Virus record (IMG/VR): IMGVR_UViG_2703718819_000006
Reading direction: 5' to 3' (one strand)
Source of the DNA: a virus
Lineage: Duplodnaviria; Heunggongvirae; Uroviricota; Caudoviricetes
Length of the DNA: 64,000 nt
The position numbers were made by a program, and so were the translations under genes. The notes under the pieces are model-generated. The model searched no databases, was not told the origin of the DNA, and saw only the letters and a list, made by a program, of their open reading frames with translations. Of this stretch, positions 3,329 to 21,861 are shown piece after piece; positions within the stretch are counted from its first letter, which is position 1; each line of letters opens with the position of its first letter.

Positions 3329-4471
3329 TTACAGGTCTGCAAACTGGCTTAGAGAAGCCTTATCCACGGTAGAATCGATCTGACCTACCAGATATGTGCT
3401 TTGCTCTGCCTCTTGTGGTGCAATTTGCAGTGTGTCGGTTAACAACCACTTGTTCATCCAGACCAGCGGATCAGTGGTAACTTCTGGAAATAAAGCCTTC
3501 AGGCCAAGACGATTCATAGCCAGATTGGTGCGGTATTTTACATAGGTTTTGAGAATATCCGCGTTTAAACCAATCATCGAACCGTCTTTGAAGAGATAGT
3601 CGGCCCAGTTCATTTCTTGTTCGGCGACTGATTTCATGGTGTCGTAAATGACGTTTTCTTCATCAGCAGCAATCTCTTTCCACAATAAACCTTCGCGACC
3701 GGTACGCATGAAGCGGATCATGCGTTCAGTTCCTTCGCAATGCAGAGCTTCATCACGGGCAATAAAGCGCATAATTTTGGTGTTACCCTCAAGCAACTTC
3801 CGTTCACCAAAGGCAAACGTACATGCAAAACTTACGTAGAAACGGATCGCCTCAAGCGCATTAATGGACACCAACGTGCGGAAAAGCTGACGATGCAAAG
3901 GGTATGGCTCCCAGCCATATTCATTTACGTACAGACGCTCAAATTCCTTCTCACCTAACGACTGGCGCTCGCAGGTCATCCCATAAAGCCTGTCATATTC
4001 AGCAGAGATACTGATCGCTCGGTTGATGATTTCTTCATCCGTAACAATACCGTCAAAAACAATACTCGGATCGTCCACCATGCCACGAATAATGTGGGTG
4101 TAGCTGCGGCTATGGATAGTCTCAGAGAAAGACCACGTTTCAACCCACGTTTCCAGTTCAGGAATAGAGATAAGCGGCAGCAGCGTTGCATTTGGACTAC
4201 GTCCCTGAACTGAATCGAGTAACGTTTGATAACGGAGATTGCTCAGAAAAATGTGACGTTCGTGGTCCCGCAGCTTCGTGTTGAAGTCGATACGATCGCT
4301 CGAAATATCAACTTCTTCCGGCCGCCAGAAGAAAGACAATTGACGTTCAATCAACTTTTCAAAATCACGGTATTTTTGCTGATCGTAACGTGCCACGTTG
4401 ACAGATTGTCCGAGGAACATAGGCTCTTTGGTTGCATCATTAGCACCCAAACGGAACGTTGAATATGACAT
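3329..4471 (-). CDS. nrdB: ribonucleotide reductase class Ia beta subunit
   Basis: 380 aa; N-terminus [55 protein letters not shown] closely parallels E. coli NrdB as recalled. Confidence 0.95.
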
Positions 4472-4496
4472 GTGTTTTTCCTTTTTCTTTTTTGGT

Positions 4497-4517
4497 GCGT
4501 TTAAACAAGTTGTTATC
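4497..4517. promoter_or_regulatory. AACAAnTTGTT palindrome upstream of nrdB
   Basis: Minus-strand GATAACAACTTGTTTAAAC about 30 nt upstream of the nrdB ATG; similar sites at 18315-18332, 44135-44151, 47067-47084. Confidence 0.3.
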
Positions 4518-4577
4518 TTATGTGTTTAAACAAGGCTTACAAATCAAAGAGAAGGTGGGGATATCCCCCACCATATG

Positions 4578-6893
4578 TCAGATTTTGCAGGCTCCGTCGC
4601 ACTCATCTTCTGGCTCGACGGCTACAGCTTGCGTCAGTGGATTCTGCGGTTCGTCGTCATCACGCTTTCCTGCCCCATCTCTGGTGTTGTGGTAGTAAAG
4701 CGTTTTAACTCCCATCTTGTAGGCGAGAAGCAAATCTGACAGTAGCGTCATCATTGGGACTTTATCGCCTTCAAAGCGAGAAGGGTCATAGTTGGTATTG
4801 GCTGAAATAGCCTGGTCAAAGAACTTCTGGATGATCGCCACCTTTGTCAGATAGCCGCGGTTGTCCGGCATATCCCACAGGTATTCATACTGTTCCTTCA
4901 GTTTTTCAAACTCAGGCACGACCATCTTGACGATGCCGTCCTTAGAAGATTTCACTGACACCGGGCCACGAGGCGGTTCGATGCCGTTGGTGGAATTAGT
5001 GATCTGGCTGGAAGTCTCGCATGGCATTTGTGCCGTCAGTGTGGAGTTGCGAAGGCCGTATTTTGCAATACGTTCACGCAGTTCTTCCCACGGCATCTTT
5101 AACTCAAAGTTGGTTTCGCCACTTTCGTCTAATGAAGAACGGTAATGGTCGATCGGCAACTGACCAATTGCGTATTTGGTCTGCTCAAACCAGTCACACT
5201 CACCTTTTGCTTCAGCAAGTCGGCAGCTGGCATCAAGAAGGTAATACTGGATAGCTTCGAACGTTTCATGCACCAGTTTATTGCCAGCGGTATCAGAATA
5301 ACGAACGCCATTCTTTGCCAGGTAATAAGCAAAGTTGGTTACACCAATTCCCAAGCTACGACGAGCTTTGGCAGGCACTTCGGCTGCCTCCATCGGATAG
5401 TCTTGATAATCCAGTAACGAATCCAGTGCAGCAACGGCATAGAACGCCACCTCTTTAAGAGACTCCAGTGAACGGATGGCTCCGAGGTTAAAAGCGGATA
5501 AAGTGCATAGCGCGATCTCACCGTTCGGGTCGTCGGTAAATGCCAGTGGACGGGTGGGTAGGGTGATCTCCATACACAGGTTTGACTGGCGAACAGGTGC
5601 AAGAGCAGGAATGAAAGCGCCATGCTCATTAATATGATCGACGTTCGCAATATAAATTCGGCCCGTGGACGCTCGTTCCTGCATCAGAGATGAGAACAGC
5701 TCAATGGCAGGTACTGACTTCTTGCGAATTGAATCATCGGCTTCGTATTTATGGTACAGCTTTTCAAACAGCTCCTGGTCTGTGAAGAAGGCTTCGTACA
5801 TATCAGGCACATCATGCGGGCTGAACAGAGTGATGTTCTCGCTTCTGACGAGTCGACGGTACATTAGACGGTTACTCATGACGCCGTAATCAAGATGGCG
5901 AACGCGGTTTTCATCAATACCACGGTTATTTTTCACCACCAGCAGACTTTCAACTTCAAGATGCCAGATCGGGTAAAACGCTGTTGCTGCGCCACCACGA
6001 ACACCACCTTGCGAACAAGATTTAACAGCCGTCTGGAAATGCTTCAGGAATGGAATAACTCCAGTATGGGTGGCTTCACCATTGCGGATCTCGCTGCCCA
6101 GCGCACGGATACGGCCAAAACCAATACCAATTCCAGCACGACGTGAAACGTAGTCGATAATTGCGGCTGAAGCTGCACTAATCCCTTTCAGACTATCGCC
6201 AGACTCAATCAGCACACAACTGGAGAACTGACGGGTTGGAGTACGGACGCCGGCCATGATTGGTGTGGGCAGAGACAGTTTGAACGTACTTGTAACGTCA
6301 TAGAAACCTTTGACCATCTCCATACGTGTTTTGCCAGCGCAGTCGTCTTCCCAATTCTGGAACAGACACATGCCTACCAGCATATAGATATGTTGCGGTC
6401 CCTCATGAATCTCACCAGTAACACGGTTTTGAACGAGGTATTTGCTTTGCAACTGCACCGTAGCTGCATAGCCAAAAAGATCGTCACGTTTCGGCTTAAT
6501 GTAATTGCCGAGTTCTTCGATCTCTTCAAACGAATAATGTGTCAGCAAATCCTTGTCATAAACGCCCTTGTTAACGTTCTTGACAATGTGTTGGTAGAAG
6601 TTCGGATAGTCGTAACGACCGAAGGCATCTTTGCGGATTTTAAAAATGTTCAGGCGGGCAGCCACCTGTGAGTAATTTGGTGCTTCTGGTGAGATCAAAT
6701 CAGCGGCAGATTTAACCAAAGCCTCATGCAACTGGCTGGTGGTCATCCCATCAAAAATGCTGGCCGCAGCTCCCATTGCTACAGCGGATGCGCTTACACC
6801 ACGAATGCCTTCTACGCCATACATTACGACGCGGTTGTATTTTTCTTCGGATAACGGCTCTGTTTGGCCGTTACGTTTTACGATGCTTATCAT
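4578..6893 (-). CDS. nrdA: ribonucleotide reductase class Ia alpha subunit
   Basis: 771 aa; contains SLPTPIMAGVRTPTRQFSSCVLIE, KSCSQGGVRGGAATAFYPIWHLEVESLL, NLCMEI and C-terminal CDGACKI motifs of NrdA. Confidence 0.95.
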   Translation of the reverse strand: MISIVKRNGQTEPLSEEKYNRVVMYGVEGIRGVSASAVAMGAAASIFDGMTTSQLHEALVKSAADLISPEAPNYSQVAARLNIFKIRKDAFGRYDYPNFYQHIVKNVNKGVYDKDLLTHYSFEEIEELGNYIKPKRDDLFGYAATVQLQSKYLVQNRVTGEIHEGPQHIYMLVGMCLFQNWEDDCAGKTRMEMVKGFYDVTSTFKLSLPTPIMAGVRTPTRQFSSCVLIESGDSLKGISAASAAIIDYVSRRAGIGIGFGRIRALGSEIRNGEATHTGVIPFLKHFQTAVKSCSQGGVRGGAATAFYPIWHLEVESLLVVKNNRGIDENRVRHLDYGVMSNRLMYRRLVRSENITLFSPHDVPDMYEAFFTDQELFEKLYHKYEADDSIRKKSVPAIELFSSLMQERASTGRIYIANVDHINEHGAFIPALAPVRQSNLCMEITLPTRPLAFTDDPNGEIALCTLSAFNLGAIRSLESLKEVAFYAVAALDSLLDYQDYPMEAAEVPAKARRSLGIGVTNFAYYLAKNGVRYSDTAGNKLVHETFEAIQYYLLDASCRLAEAKGECDWFEQTKYAIGQLPIDHYRSSLDESGETNFELKMPWEELRERIAKYGLRNSTLTAQMPCETSSQITNSTNGIEPPRGPVSVKSSKDGIVKMVVPEFEKLKEQYEYLWDMPDNRGYLTKVAIIQKFFDQAISANTNYDPSRFEGDKVPMMTLLSDLLLAYKMGVKTLYYHNTRDGAGKRDDDEPQNPLTQAVAVEPEDECDGACKI

Positions 6894-16687: not shown

Positions 16688-17428
16688 TTATGGCAGTAAT
16701 TCTTTACCGCTTTCCATTTTGGTGATAGAGACAGTAGGATCATCGTTAATGCATGATTCTGTGCCTAATGCTGCTAACCCTTTACGCATAACCGTGCCCG
16801 CAACATACGCCTCAATCTCCGCCTTTCCAGATGAGACAATTTCATCCATTTGTTCCTGCATTAATTCGGTAGCAAAGCACAGATTTTCAGGAAGGTTAGC
16901 TACAGCAGATGCTAGTTTTCTATATAGTTCTTCAAGGTCACGTTTTCCAGCTCTTCCTTTTTTCACAAGTTCACCTAGCTCTGAAACTTGCTGATTAAGT
17001 CGATCAATCTCACTATTCGTAGCGGCCTTTATTTGATCGTTGAATTTTTGCCGAATACTTTTTTGCTCGGCAATATCATGAACTCTAATTGAGTCTCCAA
17101 TGGTTTTATATGAAATAGTGCATGGCACACCTTCGCCCACTCCAAAACTGCTAACCATAGCAGCCCATTGTGCCTGGCTAAGTCTAATTTCAACTAAAGG
17201 CCGTCTATTGCAACTTCTTTGTGGGCGGGTTCGTTCATTGTCTAAGGACAGTTCCGCCTCGTAAACGCCTATTTCAATATAGTCTCTATGTTCCAGTTCT
17301 GAATCAAATAGGCGAATGCCAGTTGTGCTAACACGGCTTGTTTTCACAAGACCGAACGCTGGATGTGTTTGAATTTTTTCCCCATGTTTATTAAGGGTCG
17401 TTTTTGGTTCTTCAATTTTTCTTTTCAC
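16688..17428 (-). CDS. hypothetical protein
   Basis: 246-aa ORF; no motif assigned. Confidence 0.5.
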   Translation of the reverse strand: MKRKIEEPKTTLNKHGEKIQTHPAFGLVKTSRVSTTGIRLFDSELEHRDYIEIGVYEAELSLDNERTRPQRSCNRRPLVEIRLSQAQWAAMVSSFGVGEGVPCTISYKTIGDSIRVHDIAEQKSIRQKFNDQIKAATNSEIDRLNQQVSELGELVKKGRAGKRDLEELYRKLASAVANLPENLCFATELMQEQMDEIVSSGKAEIEAYVAGTVMRKGLAALGTESCINDDPTVSITKMESGKELLP

Positions 17429-17474
17429 CTTATTAACCTCTATGCTTCATGCGTAAAGCTAAATGACAATTTTT

Positions 17475-18299
17475 TTAATATCCGGCGTATTCGTATTCTT
17501 CATTTAGACCGTATTCTTGTGGAGTGATACCAGGACAACATAACTCAAAGGCGAACTTGCGCCATTTGATTTTTTCTTCTGACGATTGTTTGTTATTCGC
17601 CGGTGCAATGTAGTCATATTCCCATTTGCCGTTGCGAAGTAAAATGAATCCGCAGTTATTGCCGAAGTCTTCGTCTGCATAACGTATTACAAACTCAAGG
17701 TGCGGGAACTTTCTAGCCATCGCTTGATAAATTGGTTTTGGCATAGACCAGGCTGTTTCAAAGCGAATCACCAACTCACCACCAGTTGCGGCATGTCTTG
17801 CAAGACGTTTTTTATAGATTCGTTTTGCATATGCTCGAACGTGTGTATGGCGGAAATTATGGCCGTACTTAATACGTGTAGGGATACGTTTTACGGGCAT
17901 TTCGATGTTGTAGGCATTCCATTTTGTTCCCCAATTAGCTCGCGACCAGTCAAACCATGAGTAATAGCCATAGCGACGATAATTCTCAAGCCGCATAAGA
18001 GCCTGCTCTTTGATTTTGCGAATTTCCTTGCGTGTCATTCCTGATTCACGCATAGCTAATTCGATCTGTTCTGGAGTCTTTAATTCACCGAACATGTGGT
18101 CGTAAACTGTTTCGCCCGCCATTGCAGAGGCCATGCGCCTGATATGATTGTTTTCTTCCATTTCTATACTTTTCGGACGTCTGCAAATGGTATTAAAGTC
18201 AATTAGACCTTTTTTGTTAGTTATGGCACGTATGAAATCTAAGCGTTGTTTATTTGTACCACCTATGACTCGGATTTCGTTTGTAATGTGGTTGGGCAT
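17475..18299 (-). CDS. hypothetical protein (Trp/Tyr-rich motif YSWFDWSRANWGTKWNAYN)
   Basis: 274-aa ORF; preceded by an AACAATTTGTT palindrome 20-40 bp upstream. Confidence 0.5.
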   Translation of the reverse strand: MPNHITNEIRVIGGTNKQRLDFIRAITNKKGLIDFNTICRRPKSIEMEENNHIRRMASAMAGETVYDHMFGELKTPEQIELAMRESGMTRKEIRKIKEQALMRLENYRRYGYYSWFDWSRANWGTKWNAYNIEMPVKRIPTRIKYGHNFRHTHVRAYAKRIYKKRLARHAATGGELVIRFETAWSMPKPIYQAMARKFPHLEFVIRYADEDFGNNCGFILLRNGKWEYDYIAPANNKQSSEEKIKWRKFAFELCCPGITPQEYGLNEEYEYAGY

Positions 18300-18350
18300 A
18301 ATTAACTTAACCTTTTAACAAATTGTTTTCTTGTGTGTGATAATAACGAG

Positions 18351-18376
18351 AATAAAACGGCGTCCAACTGGACGCC
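18351..18376 (-). terminator. rho-independent terminator after SPFH gene
   Basis: Stem GGCGTCC/GGACGCC with AACT loop, followed on the minus strand by GTTTTATT. Confidence 0.6.
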
Positions 18377-18394: not shown

Positions 18395-19225
18395 TTATTT
18401 CACTGTAATGAAAGGAGTGTTAGCCCCTTGAGTCATGTACTGCGGTAACTGGCCATTCCATTTATTGATGGCTTCCAGCTCCATAACGTTCGGGTTTTGA
18501 CGCAGAGCTTCACCGCGCAGACGAATGGCGTCGGCTTCTGCTTGCGCACGAGCACGGATAGCATCAGCTTCACCATTAGCCTGTTCACGTAGCATATTCG
18601 CCTCAGCTTTACGCTGTTCAACTTCCTGCTGACGTTGCAGAGTACGCTGGTTAGCCGTTACTTTGGCGTTGATAGATTCAATGACGGTTTTTGGGTAATC
18701 AGGCTTTCCAACCCATGACAGGCTCAGTACCTCAATACCAACCGGAGACATCTCTTTCTGAATATCTTTCAGTGCGTTGTCCAGCAATTGCGCCTTACCA
18801 CCGTCGATAAATGAGTCAGTGGTCATACGGCTGGCCAAACGGTTTAGAGAGTCGGCAATTTTCTGACGCAGATCTGATTCGGTGATATCGTCTACGCCTT
18901 TGCGATAGGTCTGGAACACCGTCGTTACCTTGTCACGATTAACCAGATACGCAACGCCAATTTTGTGACCAATAGCAGTACCGTCACTCATCTGGAATGT
19001 GAACGGCTCGTCGTAGGTCTTCATTTGTTTGAAGGTCGGGAATACGTAAAGTTCGGTGTTAAGACCTGTCCATTGGCGACCAACGCCAACCACTTCACCG
19101 ATCCCTTTGTCTTCACCTAATTTGTTTACTTTGATGCCAACGTATCCAGGCTCCACGCGATCACAGCCAGTAAGACCCATTGTGCAAATAGCCGCCAGAG
19201 CAACTGCAAGTAAACCTTTCTTCAT
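18395..19225 (-). CDS. SPFH/band-7 (HflK/C- or stomatin-like) lipoprotein
   Basis: 276 aa; signal peptide with lipobox (MGLTGC); SPFH-like core followed by an Ala/Glu/Arg/Gln-rich coiled-coil (RKAEANMLREQANGEADAIRARAQAEADAIR). Confidence 0.7.
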   Translation of the reverse strand: MKKGLLAVALAAICTMGLTGCDRVEPGYVGIKVNKLGEDKGIGEVVGVGRQWTGLNTELYVFPTFKQMKTYDEPFTFQMSDGTAIGHKIGVAYLVNRDKVTTVFQTYRKGVDDITESDLRQKIADSLNRLASRMTTDSFIDGGKAQLLDNALKDIQKEMSPVGIEVLSLSWVGKPDYPKTVIESINAKVTANQRTLQRQQEVEQRKAEANMLREQANGEADAIRARAQAEADAIRLRGEALRQNPNVMELEAINKWNGQLPQYMTQGANTPFITVK

Positions 19226-19228
19226 TAC

Positions 19229-19429
19229 TTATTTCCCCTTTGCTTTGATTAATGAGTTGATAAACTTACGACCAGCAATAAGACCGATTACAGGAGCACC
19301 AAAACCAACGATAACTCCAAACATGACGGCTAAATCACTCTTGGTAGAAATCAGCGACGGAACCAGTAATCCGTAGATGAGAGCCACTGAAAGGCCTGTG
19401 GCTACTGCCAATAGATAGATTTTGATCAT
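19229..19429 (-). CDS. small two-TM membrane protein (possible NfeD-like partner of the SPFH protein)
   Basis: 66 aa; two hydrophobic helices; directly upstream of and co-oriented with the SPFH gene. Confidence 0.45.
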   Translation of the reverse strand: MIKIYLLAVATGLSVALIYGLLVPSLISTKSDLAVMFGVIVGFGAPVIGLIAGRKFINSLIKAKGK

Positions 19430-19458
19430 GTGTTTTCCTATGTGGTTGTTATGTGAAA

Positions 19459-19487
19459 ATGATAAGTAAGTACTTATATATTTTCAA
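19459..19487 (-). promoter_or_regulatory. candidate sigma70-type promoter overlapping a GATAAGTA...TACTTATC palindrome
   Basis: On the minus strand: TTGAAA, 17-nt spacer, TATCAT, about 30 nt upstream of the AGGAAAA Shine-Dalgarno and ATG of gene 19229..19429. Confidence 0.35.
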
Positions 19488-19491
19488 GAAA

Positions 19492-19517
19492 TAAAAAAGG
19501 CGTCCTGTGGACGCCTT
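19492..19517 (-). terminator. rho-independent terminator after recA-like gene
   Basis: Stem AGGCGTCC/GGACGCCT with TGTG loop, followed on the minus strand by TTTTTTATTT. Confidence 0.65.
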
Positions 19518-19521
19518 GTGT

Positions 19522-21861
19522 TTACTCTTCTACTGACTCGGTGGGATTGTCTTTTGATCTCCGGTCGTCGATTGCCTGTAAAGCCGCAATGATTTCAGCT
19601 AGTGGCTTCTCCCGATACATCTCGACGATCTGTGATTTGGTGTATTTCTTGTCACCAATTTCTACTCGACCGCTGGCGTTCTTTGGCAGGTATCCTTCTT
19701 CCAGCATGTACTCGACGAGCGACTCGATAACGTCGAGGCCACGAGTAGGATCGAAGTAGAATTTCCAGGTGCATTTGCCATACGGTGGTGCAACTTTGTT
19801 TTTGATGCACTCTGCGCCTACGTCCTGGCCGATCTTCTCTTTCCCATCCTTCATCACCGATGCACCGAGACGGATGCGCACAGAAGCGTAAAACTTCGGT
19901 GAATCGCCGCCTGGAGACGTAGTAGGGTCGCCAAACATTACACCGATTTTTGTGCGAACCTGATTCAAGAAGATGATGCAGGCGTTGTATTTGCGTGCCC
20001 ACAAAGCCAGAGTAGGGAAGTTCGCACTCGTCGCACGAGCCAGCGCCGTATTGTCGTTCATGTTTAGCTGATCTTTGTCTTTGGCAGTGCCTTCAGCCAT
20101 CTTTTCGAACTTCTCGGCTTTGGAGTTCGGAACCATAGACGCAAGTGAGTCAGCCACGATACAGATAGGTGCTGATTCAGGAATAAGCTCTTCATCACGT
20201 ACCAATTTAAGAATTGTGCCGATCAACTCTACAGAGTCTTCGAAGGTATCAGGCTGCTTGTATACCCACTGACCGTCATCCTCATCTGCATTCAAACCAT
20301 TGGCTACAGCCAGGCCAACGTCAAAACTGTTTTCATGATCGAGGAATACCGCCAGACCATCTTGTTTTTGAGCGGAGATCATCGCTGCTGTTGCAAGGAA
20401 TGTGTTGTGGCTGATAATCCCGTTAGACCAGAAAGAGTGTGTTTCCGGCATCGCTACGTCGAACGTTGGTGCTTCACCTTCCTCAATAGCCACGACTTCG
20501 TCGTAGAACAAGTTAGAGCCAATTACCGCTGCCAGTTGTGCAAACAGATGCTCGTTAAAACGATTCTTTCTGCCAATGAAGGAGACATAGATTTCTCGCA
20601 GTTTGTCTATTCCGACACGATCGCCGCGGCCAATAACGTGGTCTACCAGAGCGTAGTCTTCACGGGTGGTCTTGGTGAGCGACTCGTAGAGTGATTTCAC
20701 TAAGCCGCTGATGTGCGGAACATAGCCTGAGTAAGTGCGGTCAAAACCAATGTCCCGTTTGGTTGCCACTGATAAACGTGCCGGAGATTCGAAACCAATC
20801 GTTGACAGAAAAAGGTCGTAATTAGAGCCACTGAATGACAGCCGGTAATATGTATTTTCATAACCCGCGACGTGTTTTTCAGAGATAGTTGACGTAATCC
20901 CCAGATTCAGGAGCATGAGGCGAATTTGCTGTAGCAGCAGCCCACTCGCGCTCACAACCTCAATGCAGCGACCATCATTGACGTGGCATTCCAGCTCAAA
21001 GTAGCCGCGAAGGAATGCAATTTGAGCCTCGCTATTGGCGCGACGCACACTCAACGGAACCTGCTTGCCAGCAGCTTTCTCATACTCCAGACCATATTCT
21101 TTAAAAAGCAGCGAACGCACCTCTTTGCTAAACAGCACATGGTCTTCCGAGCCGTTATGTTTTCTCGTAACTGGCATCTTGTCTGATACCAGCGAAATGA
21201 GGCGGTAGTACTCATCCTTGATGAAAGGATCTGTGTTAGAAAAATTCACTGAATTTTCAGAGGCCACGTATCCGTCAGCAATTAAATAGCCCATCAGTTT
21301 TGCGATATTGGCATCCAGGTGCTGATCGCCGAATTGATGTGTGCCAACCATTGAAGGAATCGTGTCGCCTACACTGATTTTTTCAGCATGTCGCCAGACG
21401 ACATTACCTAAGTCGTCAACCACACGGATTGGGTGACGGAACGTAGCCTCGATATAACCGCCTGATGCCAGCTTAATACGCTTGAATTTGCGACGGTTGT
21501 TCCATGTCAGGTGTGAGGTCTTCTCTATCACGCCATTTTCATTGATGAGTCCAACGTTATGCTCTACATCGCGAGTAGTGCATGTCGCTTTGTACCCTTC
21601 AATCTCAAACAACTCTTTCACTGTTACCATTCCACGCTCCGTCAGCAGCATGGTGTCTGCGGTAACACATTTCCCCGCGCTTGGAGGACCGAATACTTCT
21701 ACGATACGACCACATGGGAAACCGCCATCGTAACGACCGGAAATAGCTTTGTTTAACGGAGGAAAGCCTGTGTCAATCCAATGAGTTACTTTCTGAATTT
21801 CGTCGTTGCTACCGATTTTCTTTTTCAGAGCAAGTGCCAGTGCGGATTTTCCTTTTGCCAT
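19522..21861 (-). CDS. recA: RecA/UvsX-family recombinase interrupted by an intein
   Basis: 779 aa. Exteins (about 357 aa) carry GRIVEVFGPPSAGK|T and IIFLNQVRTKIGVMFGDPTTSPGGDSPKFYASVRIRL, closely paralleling E. coli RecA as recalled. Confidence 0.85.
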   Translation of the reverse strand: MAKGKSALALALKKKIGSNDEIQKVTHWIDTGFPPLNKAISGRYDGGFPCGRIVEVFGPPSAGKCVTADTMLLTERGMVTVKELFEIEGYKATCTTRDVEHNVGLINENGVIEKTSHLTWNNRRKFKRIKLASGGYIEATFRHPIRVVDDLGNVVWRHAEKISVGDTIPSMVGTHQFGDQHLDANIAKLMGYLIADGYVASENSVNFSNTDPFIKDEYYRLISLVSDKMPVTRKHNGSEDHVLFSKEVRSLLFKEYGLEYEKAAGKQVPLSVRRANSEAQIAFLRGYFELECHVNDGRCIEVVSASGLLLQQIRLMLLNLGITSTISEKHVAGYENTYYRLSFSGSNYDLFLSTIGFESPARLSVATKRDIGFDRTYSGYVPHISGLVKSLYESLTKTTREDYALVDHVIGRGDRVGIDKLREIYVSFIGRKNRFNEHLFAQLAAVIGSNLFYDEVVAIEEGEAPTFDVAMPETHSFWSNGIISHNTFLATAAMISAQKQDGLAVFLDHENSFDVGLAVANGLNADEDDGQWVYKQPDTFEDSVELIGTILKLVRDEELIPESAPICIVADSLASMVPNSKAEKFEKMAEGTAKDKDQLNMNDNTALARATSANFPTLALWARKYNACIIFLNQVRTKIGVMFGDPTTSPGGDSPKFYASVRIRLGASVMKDGKEKIGQDVGAECIKNKVAPPYGKCTWKFYFDPTRGLDVIESLVEYMLEEGYLPKNASGRVEIGDKKYTKSQIVEMYREKPLAEIIAALQAIDDRRSKDNPTESVEE
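20404..21669 (-). mobile_element. intein (about 422 aa) with LAGLIDADG homing-endonuclease domain, inserted in the RecA P-loop
   Basis: Starts with Cys right after GPPSAGK (CVTADTMLL...) and ends ...GIISHN followed by Thr (the extein T of GKT); internal LMGYLIADGY and FLRGYFELEC motifs. Confidence 0.75.

Follow-up and report, generated by a model that had tools for sequence, protein, structure and literature searches.

A phage-borne SPFH lipoprotein and its two-helix partner as a candidate inner-membrane scaffold

Why would a bacteriophage carry an SPFH gene? For SPFH cages (HflK/C, prohibitin, stomatin, flotillin and erlin among them) the structures are now understood, but the functions are largely enigmatic, and the role of the family in phages was called unclear in papers of 2021 and 2026 (PMC8540360, PMC13239085). 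The question is raised here by positions 18,395 to 19,429 of a 64,000-nucleotide stretch of viral DNA, the IMG/VR record IMGVR_UViG_2703718819_000006 (this whole stretch is the window below), in which a gene for a 66-residue protein with two transmembrane (TM) segments is followed by a gene for an SPFH-domain lipoprotein. We found that the two proteins are co-inherited across phyla and repeatedly fused, and the pair is likely to form an HflK/C-like cage on the inner membrane. We assign a probability of about 0.55 to this two-component scaffold as a whole. Our confidence is good that the two proteins form a complex and a scaffold, and much lower for any particular functional output, which would be argued by analogy.

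An SPFH lipoprotein and a membrane-spanning partner

Both open reading frames (ORFs) were confirmed at the limits given in Table 1, where 18395 is the final base of the SPFH stop codon and 19429 is the A of the small-ORF ATG. The larger protein matched Pfam Band_7 (PF01145) across residues 23-209 with an E-value of 2.6e-30 (106.2 bits; cut-off 23.6) and fell in PHROG 200, labelled 'lipoprotein' (E 3e-108). A sub-threshold match to the Pfam family Flot (E 8e-4) lay on its C-terminal helix. An AlphaFold2 (AF2) model built from 107 diverse homologues reached a mean predicted local distance difference test (pLDDT) score of 93.4 and comprised a signal helix, an alpha/beta region (residues 21-176), a 65-residue helix (179-243), a second helix (245-255) and an extended tail. 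An earlier note on this DNA, made from the sequence alone, had proposed an SPFH domain, a lipobox and a C-terminal coiled coil; the Band_7 match, the LTGC pattern with its conservation in relatives, and the helix at 179-243 bear out all three.

In a Foldseek search of the PDB, the model gave full-length matches to HflC/HflK (7vhq, 6e-14), prohibitin (8rrh), erlin, stomatin, flotillin, the major vault protein and QmcA-YbbJ (8z5g), at 13-18% identity. The long helix fell on the wall helices in the full-length alignments to HflK/C, prohibitin and erlin. By sequence, the sole PDB match was HflK (E 0.007). There was also a weak match to a viral 'flagellar basal body-associated' fold (E 0.04). We considered HflK or HflC orthology and rejected it, as the protein scored far under both equivalog cut-offs (18.7 bits against 159.4 for TIGR01933 and 30.2 against 134.4 for TIGR01932); the resemblance is retained as an analogy. 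The SPFH protein is thus a deep, separate SPFH branch rather than a captured hflK or hflC.

Database labels for the family are 'SPFH domain-containing protein', 'lipoprotein' (the RefSeq name of the orthologues), 'prohibitin family protein' and, wrongly, 'serine protease'. The last is attached to family members from Stx2a-converting phages, P88, Erwinia phage Pastis and Kosakonia; Band_7 alone was detected in them, and we regard the label as a propagated mis-annotation. Pfam likewise found no protease domain in the SPFH protein of the window, and a weak PHROG 'protease' match falls on the Ala/Glu-rich helix.

The N terminus, MKKGLLAVALAAICTMGLTG-C21-D-R-V, carries the lipobox LTGC, and its layout (MKK-GLLAVALAAICTMG-LTG-C21) fits the pattern of n-region, h-region and lipobox [LVI][ASTVI][GAS]C. 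The stretch GCDRVEPG is kept in all 80 viral (IMG/VR) loci. C21-D22-R-V also occurs in phiP27, P88, Fifi051 and PHA46, and SSE121 has glutamate at +2. Aspartate at +2 is an inner-membrane retention signal (Lol avoidance) in E. coli and other Enterobacterales. The other end of the protein is conserved as well: among the 107 diverse sequences W256 is invariant, and G258, P261 and P271 are at least 90% conserved. The invariant or near-invariant positions of the family as a whole are a glycine run in the membrane-proximal N-terminal sheet and the W256-x-G-x-x-P...P motif, which we propose, by analogy with SPFH cages, as a cap or crown contact.

The 66-residue protein, described in the earlier note as having two TM segments, indeed contains two hydrophobic stretches (residues ~4-27 and ~33-53). 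Five basic residues stand in its tail, and by the positive-inside rule it is predicted to form a hairpin with both termini in the cytoplasm. It belongs to PHROG 1130, 'membrane protein' (E 2e-25). The note had also implied an analogy with NfeD/YbbJ, which did not survive: we found no Pfam family (E <= 0.1) and no NCBIfam match for the partner, NfeD (PF01957) included, and 66 residues leave no room for an oligonucleotide/oligosaccharide-binding (OB) fold. The N-terminal modules of the fusion proteins described below, searched with the same question, matched nothing either. Judged by its sequence, the partner is a small family of its own with a conserved motif in its periplasmic loop. This motif, in the family form Y-G-L-L-V-P-x-L-I-S-x-K/S-S/D, is the sole strongly conserved stretch in separate and fused partners, and we propose it as the docking site for the SPFH protein.

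Co-inheritance, fusion and spread of the pair

A two-TM ORF of 62-78 residues with the motif lies directly upstream of the SPFH gene in 80 of 80 IMG/VR loci. In a genome scan that used an 11-sequence alignment, and from which 80 species-level genome loci were taken, a partner hidden Markov model (HMM) match ended at the SPFH start on the same strand in about 58; the two were fused in loci L129 and L139, and further, divergent partners were found by eye in L098, L154, L158 and L160. The partner was adjacent to the SPFH gene in 141 of the 167 fetched loci that have an SPFH homologue. Pairwise identities of the two proteins were correlated (r = 0.71), with the partner evolving faster. The two genes turn up together in hundreds of loci, which is far beyond chance. 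When we clustered the neighbours in 69 non-enterobacterial loci, no third conserved neighbour (protease, FtsH or NfeD) emerged beyond the synteny within Rhodanobacteraceae.

Natural fusions also bear on the topology. When 1.84 billion cluster representatives were searched exhaustively, 2,816 relatives came back, with 195 at E <= 1e-30, and about 18 of the best 150 (representatives of 50%-identity clusters) were fusions of 320-390 residues. These read in the order two-TM module with motif, basic linker, signal-like helix ending in cysteine, and SPFH domain. The partner HMM matched 13 of them (E 9e-10 to 4e-4), and one, P0157, was predicted with three N-terminal helices (pLDDT 83-88). This order (N terminus in, then out, in and out) independently points to a periplasmic SPFH domain and a cytoplasmic partner tail.

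All 18 fusions (P0157, P0167 and P0168 among them) keep the lipobox cysteine after the third hydrophobic helix, and about 88% of the scored unfused members have a cysteine at this position. One may speculate that signal peptidase II cleaves the natural fusions at the internal lipobox, so that these polyproteins yield subunits in a 1:1 ratio. We rejected the 18 of 18 as proof of internal cleavage; with cysteine in about 88% of unfused members, such a count has a chance of about 0.1.

A few loci depart from the usual arrangement. In two chromosomal prophages, L088 (Shigella flexneri) and L089 (E. coli), at 4027-5001, about 770 bp separate the partner ORF from the SPFH gene, where the usual distance is 0-4 nt. 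The partner follows the SPFH gene in two cases, as a C-terminal two-TM module in P0162 and as a downstream gene in L152 (5750-6064). The fusion in P0162 would invert the topology of the partner, unless it reflects a lost stop codon.

A two-TM protein of 66 residues with a highly basic C-terminal tail could also be a holin-like or toxic pore former with the SPFH protein as its keeper, making a lysis-timing or toxin-antidote pair; SPFH cages do confine membrane proteins. We think this very unlikely. The partner matches no holin PHROG, the pair stands outside the lysis cassette (in the related phage-plasmid Cyrano the holin, endolysin and Rz/Rz1 lie elsewhere), and the 1:1 covalent fusions and the housekeeping contexts of chromosomal copies better fit a structural subunit.

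By tblastn, the SPFH protein occurs in 373 of 50,697 phage records. Its temperate carriers are SSU5-like, P1-like (RCS47), lambdoid (phiP27, Stx2a-converting) and P2-like (P88) phages; among the clearly virulent ones are Vequintavirinae (SSE121), N4-like phages (Fifi051, SPSP), jumbo phages (PHA46, fENko-Kae01), Bruynoghevirus, phiEa21-4-like phages, phiCbK, Lak phages and crAss-like phages. The virulent SSE121, Fifi051 and PHA46 have the partner, with a weak case in IAS virus; the phiP27 partner ORF lacks annotation, and that of P88 is gp11. A link to lysogeny or plasmid maintenance, which the earlier note had wished to see examined, is weakened by this distribution, as strictly virulent phages carry the pair.

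Bacterial genomes carry it too. We found matches in 760 of 5,426 complete E. coli genomes (14%), 195 of which match most of the unit; the matches occupy 418 chromosomal and 440 plasmid places. In Dyella the pair sits amid housekeeping genes (S9 and M56 peptidases, hemerythrin and ribonucleotide reductase) and is syntenic across species, and in Leptospira a chromosomal pair adjoins succinate dehydrogenase. Given this distribution, the pair is a cellular module that phages have acquired repeatedly.

Structure and distribution together bear on the idea, which goes back to the earlier note, that the pair modulates FtsH or the HflK/C pathway. The cage would imitate HflK/C or become part of them, and would trap FtsH or shield it; altered turnover of cII-like regulators or membrane proteins would then affect envelope homeostasis or the choice between lysis and lysogeny. 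Among the best structural matches are the HflC/HflK-FtsH complexes (7vhq, 9cz2 and 7wi3), HflK is the only PDB protein matched by sequence, the predicted periplasmic orientation is shared with HflK/C, and several SPFH cages enclose AAA proteases (PMC13086221). However, HflK/C orthology is ruled out, prohibitin, erlin and stomatin match equally well, and there is one SPFH gene instead of a K/C pair, with a lipid anchor replacing the TM segment and cytoplasmic N terminus. No protease gene was linked to the pair in any context examined, and the strictly virulent carriers make no lysogeny decision. We consider an FtsH modulator unlikely.

In phiCbK, an RtcB-like RNA ligase is encoded two genes away from the band-7 lipoprotein gene (L166, 3655-4887). 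According to a 2026 paper, PaFlo8, an SPFH protein of P. aeruginosa, lies inside the rtc locus; the resemblance to phiCbK may be a coincidence.

An insulated transcription unit and its expression

The window is an SSU5-like phage-plasmid, because the region shares 98.8% identity with Escherichia phage CMS-2020a, 93.5% with Cyrano, the phage-plasmid of LF82, and 80% with SSU5, and also matches E. coli plasmids of roughly 108-110 kb. The phage origin proposed in the earlier note is thereby upheld, as is its claim that the two genes form a unit with a promoter and a terminator of their own, on the strength of consensus scanning, folding z-scores and conservation in relatives. Recombination and replication genes surround the unit. 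The order along the minus strand is recA-like gene, terminator, promoter, Shine-Dalgarno sequence, 66-residue ORF, SPFH ORF and second terminator (Table 1).

Table 1. Coordinates of the SPFH/partner unit and its parts in the window
Feature	Position	Strand	Basis or remark
SPFH/Band_7 lipoprotein precursor, 276 aa	18395..19225	-	Pfam Band_7, PHROG 200, AF2 model
Lipoprotein signal peptide, aa 1-20, with lipobox L-T-G-C	19163..19225	-	Cys21 codon 19165-19163; predicted lipidated residue
SPFH (Band_7) domain, aa 23-209	18599..19159	-	Pfam envelope; alpha/beta fold, pLDDT 94-98
Long Ala/Glu/Arg-rich helix, aa 179-243, and short helix, aa 245-255	18461..18691	-	AF2; correspond to CC1/CC2 wall helices of SPFH cages
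C-terminal motif W256-N-G-x-L-P...P271-F-I	18398..18460	-	Holds one of the family's only two invariant columns
Two-TM partner, 66 aa	19229..19429	-	TM1 ~4-27, loop STKSD 28-32, TM2 ~33-53, basic tail 54-66
Partner motif Y-G-L-L-V-P-S-L-I-S-T-K-S-D, aa 19-32	19334..19375	-	Periplasmic end of TM1
Intrinsic terminator of the upstream recA-like gene	19497..19517	-	Consensus scan; -14.7 kcal/mol, z -7.2; U-run after hairpin
Sigma-70-like promoter, TTGAAA-17 nt-TATCAT	19459..19487	-	Consensus scan; palindrome AAGTACTT in spacer
Shine-Dalgarno sequence AGGA, 6 nt 5' of the small-ORF ATG	19436..19439	-	Read from sequence; kept in relatives' alignment
Intrinsic terminator closing the unit	18359..18376	-	Consensus scan; -14.3 kcal/mol, z -5.2; kept in relatives

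Across an alignment of 10 SSU5-like loci whose flanks have diverged, a 30-nt block of the promoter, CTTGAAAATATATAAGTACTTACTTATCAT, is nearly invariant and its spacer wholly so; both terminator stems are kept in diverged relatives, with compensatory changes. The upstream terminator insulates the unit against read-through from the recA-like gene. At the gene junction, TAA GTA ATG, the SPFH start codon stands 3 nt past the partner stop, and the SPFH Shine-Dalgarno sequence, AAGGGGA, lies within the 3' end of the partner ORF. The two genes are thus an insulated, translationally coupled transcription unit. We considered the spacer palindrome TAAGTACTTA as an operator and dropped it: with at most one mismatch allowed it has 5 matches in the window, where 1.55 are expected, a count reached by 2 of 100 shuffles. 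The unit region contains no Rfam family, and its base composition is unremarkable.

The neighbouring genes have features of their own. Upstream, the RecA-like recombinase (779 residues; window 19522-21861, minus strand) contains an intein with a LAGLIDADG homing-endonuclease domain (Pfam RecA, Intein_splicing and LAGLIDADG_3), and the RecA gene of Cyrano has the same length. The gene directly 3' of the unit (window 17475-18299, minus strand) encodes a 274-residue DUF1281_C/Api92-like protein. At the megablast level, window 17400-18305 is common only to the closest relative, CMS-2020a (CP054387), and Cyrano, PhiR41_1 and SSU5 match from about 18306; the slot beside the SPFH unit is therefore variable. 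Elsewhere, three tRNA genes (Rfam) lie side by side at window 36975-37218 on the minus strand.

Expression could be read from the Cyrano orthologues, CYRAN_56 (partner) and CYRAN_57 (SPFH), in published RNA-seq data (S1 Table; log2(fpkm+5), with fpkm the fragments per kilobase per million, in two replicates; PMC9928086). In overnight culture in lysogeny broth (LB), the values were 2.32 and 2.32 for CYRAN_56 and 4.30 and 3.02 for CYRAN_57; after 6 h in medium they were 3.48 and 3.09, and 5.00 and 4.76; and after 6 h in macrophages they were 7.61 and 7.70, and 7.25 and 7.42 (PMC9928086). The two genes thus rise about 5-20-fold in macrophages at 6 h, and they are not in the list of Cyrano morons detected in LB (PMC9928086). 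The flanking genes are low in every condition (RecA 3.1-4.2, CYRAN_58 2.3-4.2), and the lytic cycle of Cyrano is not induced in macrophages (PMC9928086). Because the flanking genes stay low, the unit appears to be transcribed on its own, which also supports activity of the promoter; our reading is that it is independently transcribed, essentially off in the LB-grown lysogen and on inside macrophages.

The unit has the layout of a moron, with its own promoter and terminator amid unrelated phage genes. This layout, and the occurrence of the unit in accessory regions, both in four temperate phage types unrelated to one another and in many virulent phages, would suit superinfection exclusion or membrane-level defence or anti-defence, in which the cage blocks DNA entry by other phages or guards the inner membrane against lysis from without or membrane-targeting abortive-infection effectors. 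Known exclusion proteins (T4 Imm and Sp, HK97 gp15 and Ltp) are typically inner-membrane proteins exposed to the periplasm, as the pair is predicted to be. However, neither the two proteins nor the products of the two downstream genes matched PADLOC-DB 2.0 at E <= 0.1, and literature searches for SPFH with defence, anti-phage or superinfection exclusion gave nothing relevant. Moreover, one would expect an exclusion gene to be expressed in the Cyrano lysogen grown in LB, and there the unit is silent; the syntenic copies on Dyella and Leptospira chromosomes speak for a cellular role. A role in exclusion or defence therefore seems improbable to us.

Induction in macrophages also raises the prospect of a lysogenic-conversion virulence lipoprotein that is released in vesicles and acts on the animal host. 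The precedent is PM0222 of a Pasteurella multocida prophage, called HflK/C-like by its authors, with Band_7 at residues 23-221 and the same layout; it is found in outer-membrane vesicles (OMVs) and signals through Toll-like receptors (TLR) 1/2, and its deletion attenuates virulence (PMC9872710). Against this, Asp+2 and the inner-membrane partner argue for retention at the inner membrane, and members of the family are also found in virulent and crAss-like phages and in free-living soil bacteria that lack an animal host. We regard such a role for the phage lipoprotein as highly improbable.

The proposed scaffold and its known counterparts

In the two-component scaffold that we favour, the SPFH precursor would be exported and lipidated on Cys21, and the mature protein held on the periplasmic leaflet of the inner membrane by Asp+2 and, independently, by the partner. 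Protomers would join through the 65-residue helix and the W-N-G-x-L-P C terminus into an HflK/C-like ring or dome. The partner would dock beneath the wall by its periplasmic loop, with its basic tail in the cytoplasm, and would act as a bilayer-spanning 'fence', the role that HflK/C fill with their own TM helices. A cage of this kind could enclose a patch of inner membrane, shielding it or making a client membrane protein less accessible. The likeliest benefit would be inner-membrane integrity or proteostasis that is kept or re-tuned under envelope stress, such as phage infection or the macrophage vacuole. For the phage, the pair is an accessory host-envelope module, serving neither replication nor morphogenesis and lying outside the lysis cassette.

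Several observations weigh against this scaffold. Arginine at +3 could weaken Lol avoidance, although its effect is uncertain. The partner diverges fast, with ~42% identity where the SPFH proteins are 70-90% identical, and about 16% of loci are without it. These partner-less loci include those of Bruynoghevirus Ab22 and phiCbK, in both of which we did not find the partner and which have other small membrane ORFs, and those of Myxococcaceae and Kapaibacteria, which have none; they imply that the SPFH protein can act alone or with other partners. The macrophage induction is one published data set, obtained on an orthologue, and other Cyrano genes (CYRAN_60-62, 5, 12-13, 44 and 46) are also strongly up in macrophages at 6 h. 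Oligomerisation, lipidation, localisation and partner contact are predictions from the sequence and from a model of a monomer, and the proposed shielding or client restriction is carried over from other SPFH cages.

Some of these loci have further features. In five Bacteroidota loci (L153, L157, L159, L161 and L162), a signal-bearing ORF of about 100 residues stands upstream in place of the two-TM partner. The upstream ORF encodes 72 residues with one TM segment in Ab22 (L165 ORF16) and 116 residues with three in phiCbK (L166 gp181). Such small upstream ORFs may be alternative partners. In Cyrano, CYRAN_60-62 are small genes just past CYRAN_58-59, on the side of the SPFH unit opposite recA, and a common regulator may act on the macrophage-induced genes.

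A bolder extension of the scaffold would make it a membrane-protection device spread by phages, in which a periplasmic cage fenced in trans walls off patches of inner membrane and so excludes incoming phage DNA or toxins, or neutralises membrane-attacking abortive-infection effectors and host stress such as that of the macrophage vacuole. We hold this extension to be rather doubtful.

In the searchable literature we found no account of the obligate two-TM partner and its motif, the fusions or the predicted periplasmic topology at the inner membrane, nor of the breadth of the family (virulent phages and cellular genomes) or its conditional expression. The pair is a compact, genetically tractable version of an SPFH cage, consisting of a lipoprotein and a 66-residue protein with no third gene. 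The reason why so many phages have it, once known, would tell what an SPFH cage facing the periplasm is for, and could bring to light a step of infection, exclusion or stress tolerance that takes place at the membrane. The macrophage induction of the orthologue, together with the PM0222 data, hints at relevance to pathogen fitness.

How does the pair compare with known systems? FliL forms a periplasmic SPFH-type ring around the inner-membrane flagellar stators. It is thus a precedent for such a ring encircling an inner-membrane complex, but it has a single TM segment of its own, lacks the long cage helix and is encoded in flagellar operons. Prohibitins (cd03401 SPFH_prohibitin; PHB1/2 cage, 8rrh and 9o9z) are similar in length (~275 residues) and match the model as well as HflK/C do, and several phage homologues are annotated as 'prohibitin family protein'. 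Prohibitins differ in having an N-terminal TM anchor and in forming a PHB1/PHB2 heteromer that works with m-AAA proteases, and they have neither a lipobox nor a two-TM partner. PM0222 of Pasteurella multocida is the sole prophage SPFH protein with experimental data and, compared by description only, resembles the phage protein in having its SPFH domain from residue ~22 after a signal-like N terminus, whereas its reported activity, as OMV cargo and TLR1/2 agonist, concerns the animal host (PMC9872710).

The closest counterpart in structure is the HflK/C-FtsH complex (7vhq, 7wi3 and 9cz2), which supplies the top structural matches and shares the SPFH1/2 domains, the long wall helix, the C-terminal cap and the periplasmic position of most of its mass. 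HflK/C are, however, two paralogues each with an N-terminal TM segment, whereas here a single SPFH gene is combined with a predicted lipid anchor and the bilayer-spanning part would be supplied in trans by the 66-residue protein; identity is 16-18%. In gene organisation the counterparts are the SPFH-NfeD operons (QmcA-YbbJ, 8z5g; FloA/FloT-NfeD; PH1511-PH1510), which likewise pair an SPFH gene with a gene for a small membrane protein thought to aid assembly, and QmcA is itself a structural match (2e-7, Foldseek). In contrast to those operons, the partner here has neither the NfeD OB-fold nor any Pfam match. The QmcA cage of E. coli faces the cytoplasm, whereas that of the phage protein is predicted to be periplasmic. 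The pair would thus work most like HflK/C and is organised like the SPFH-NfeD operons, while the features that define each of these systems place it outside both. It is not surprising in kind, and it offers a clean and very widespread handle on periplasm-facing SPFH cages.

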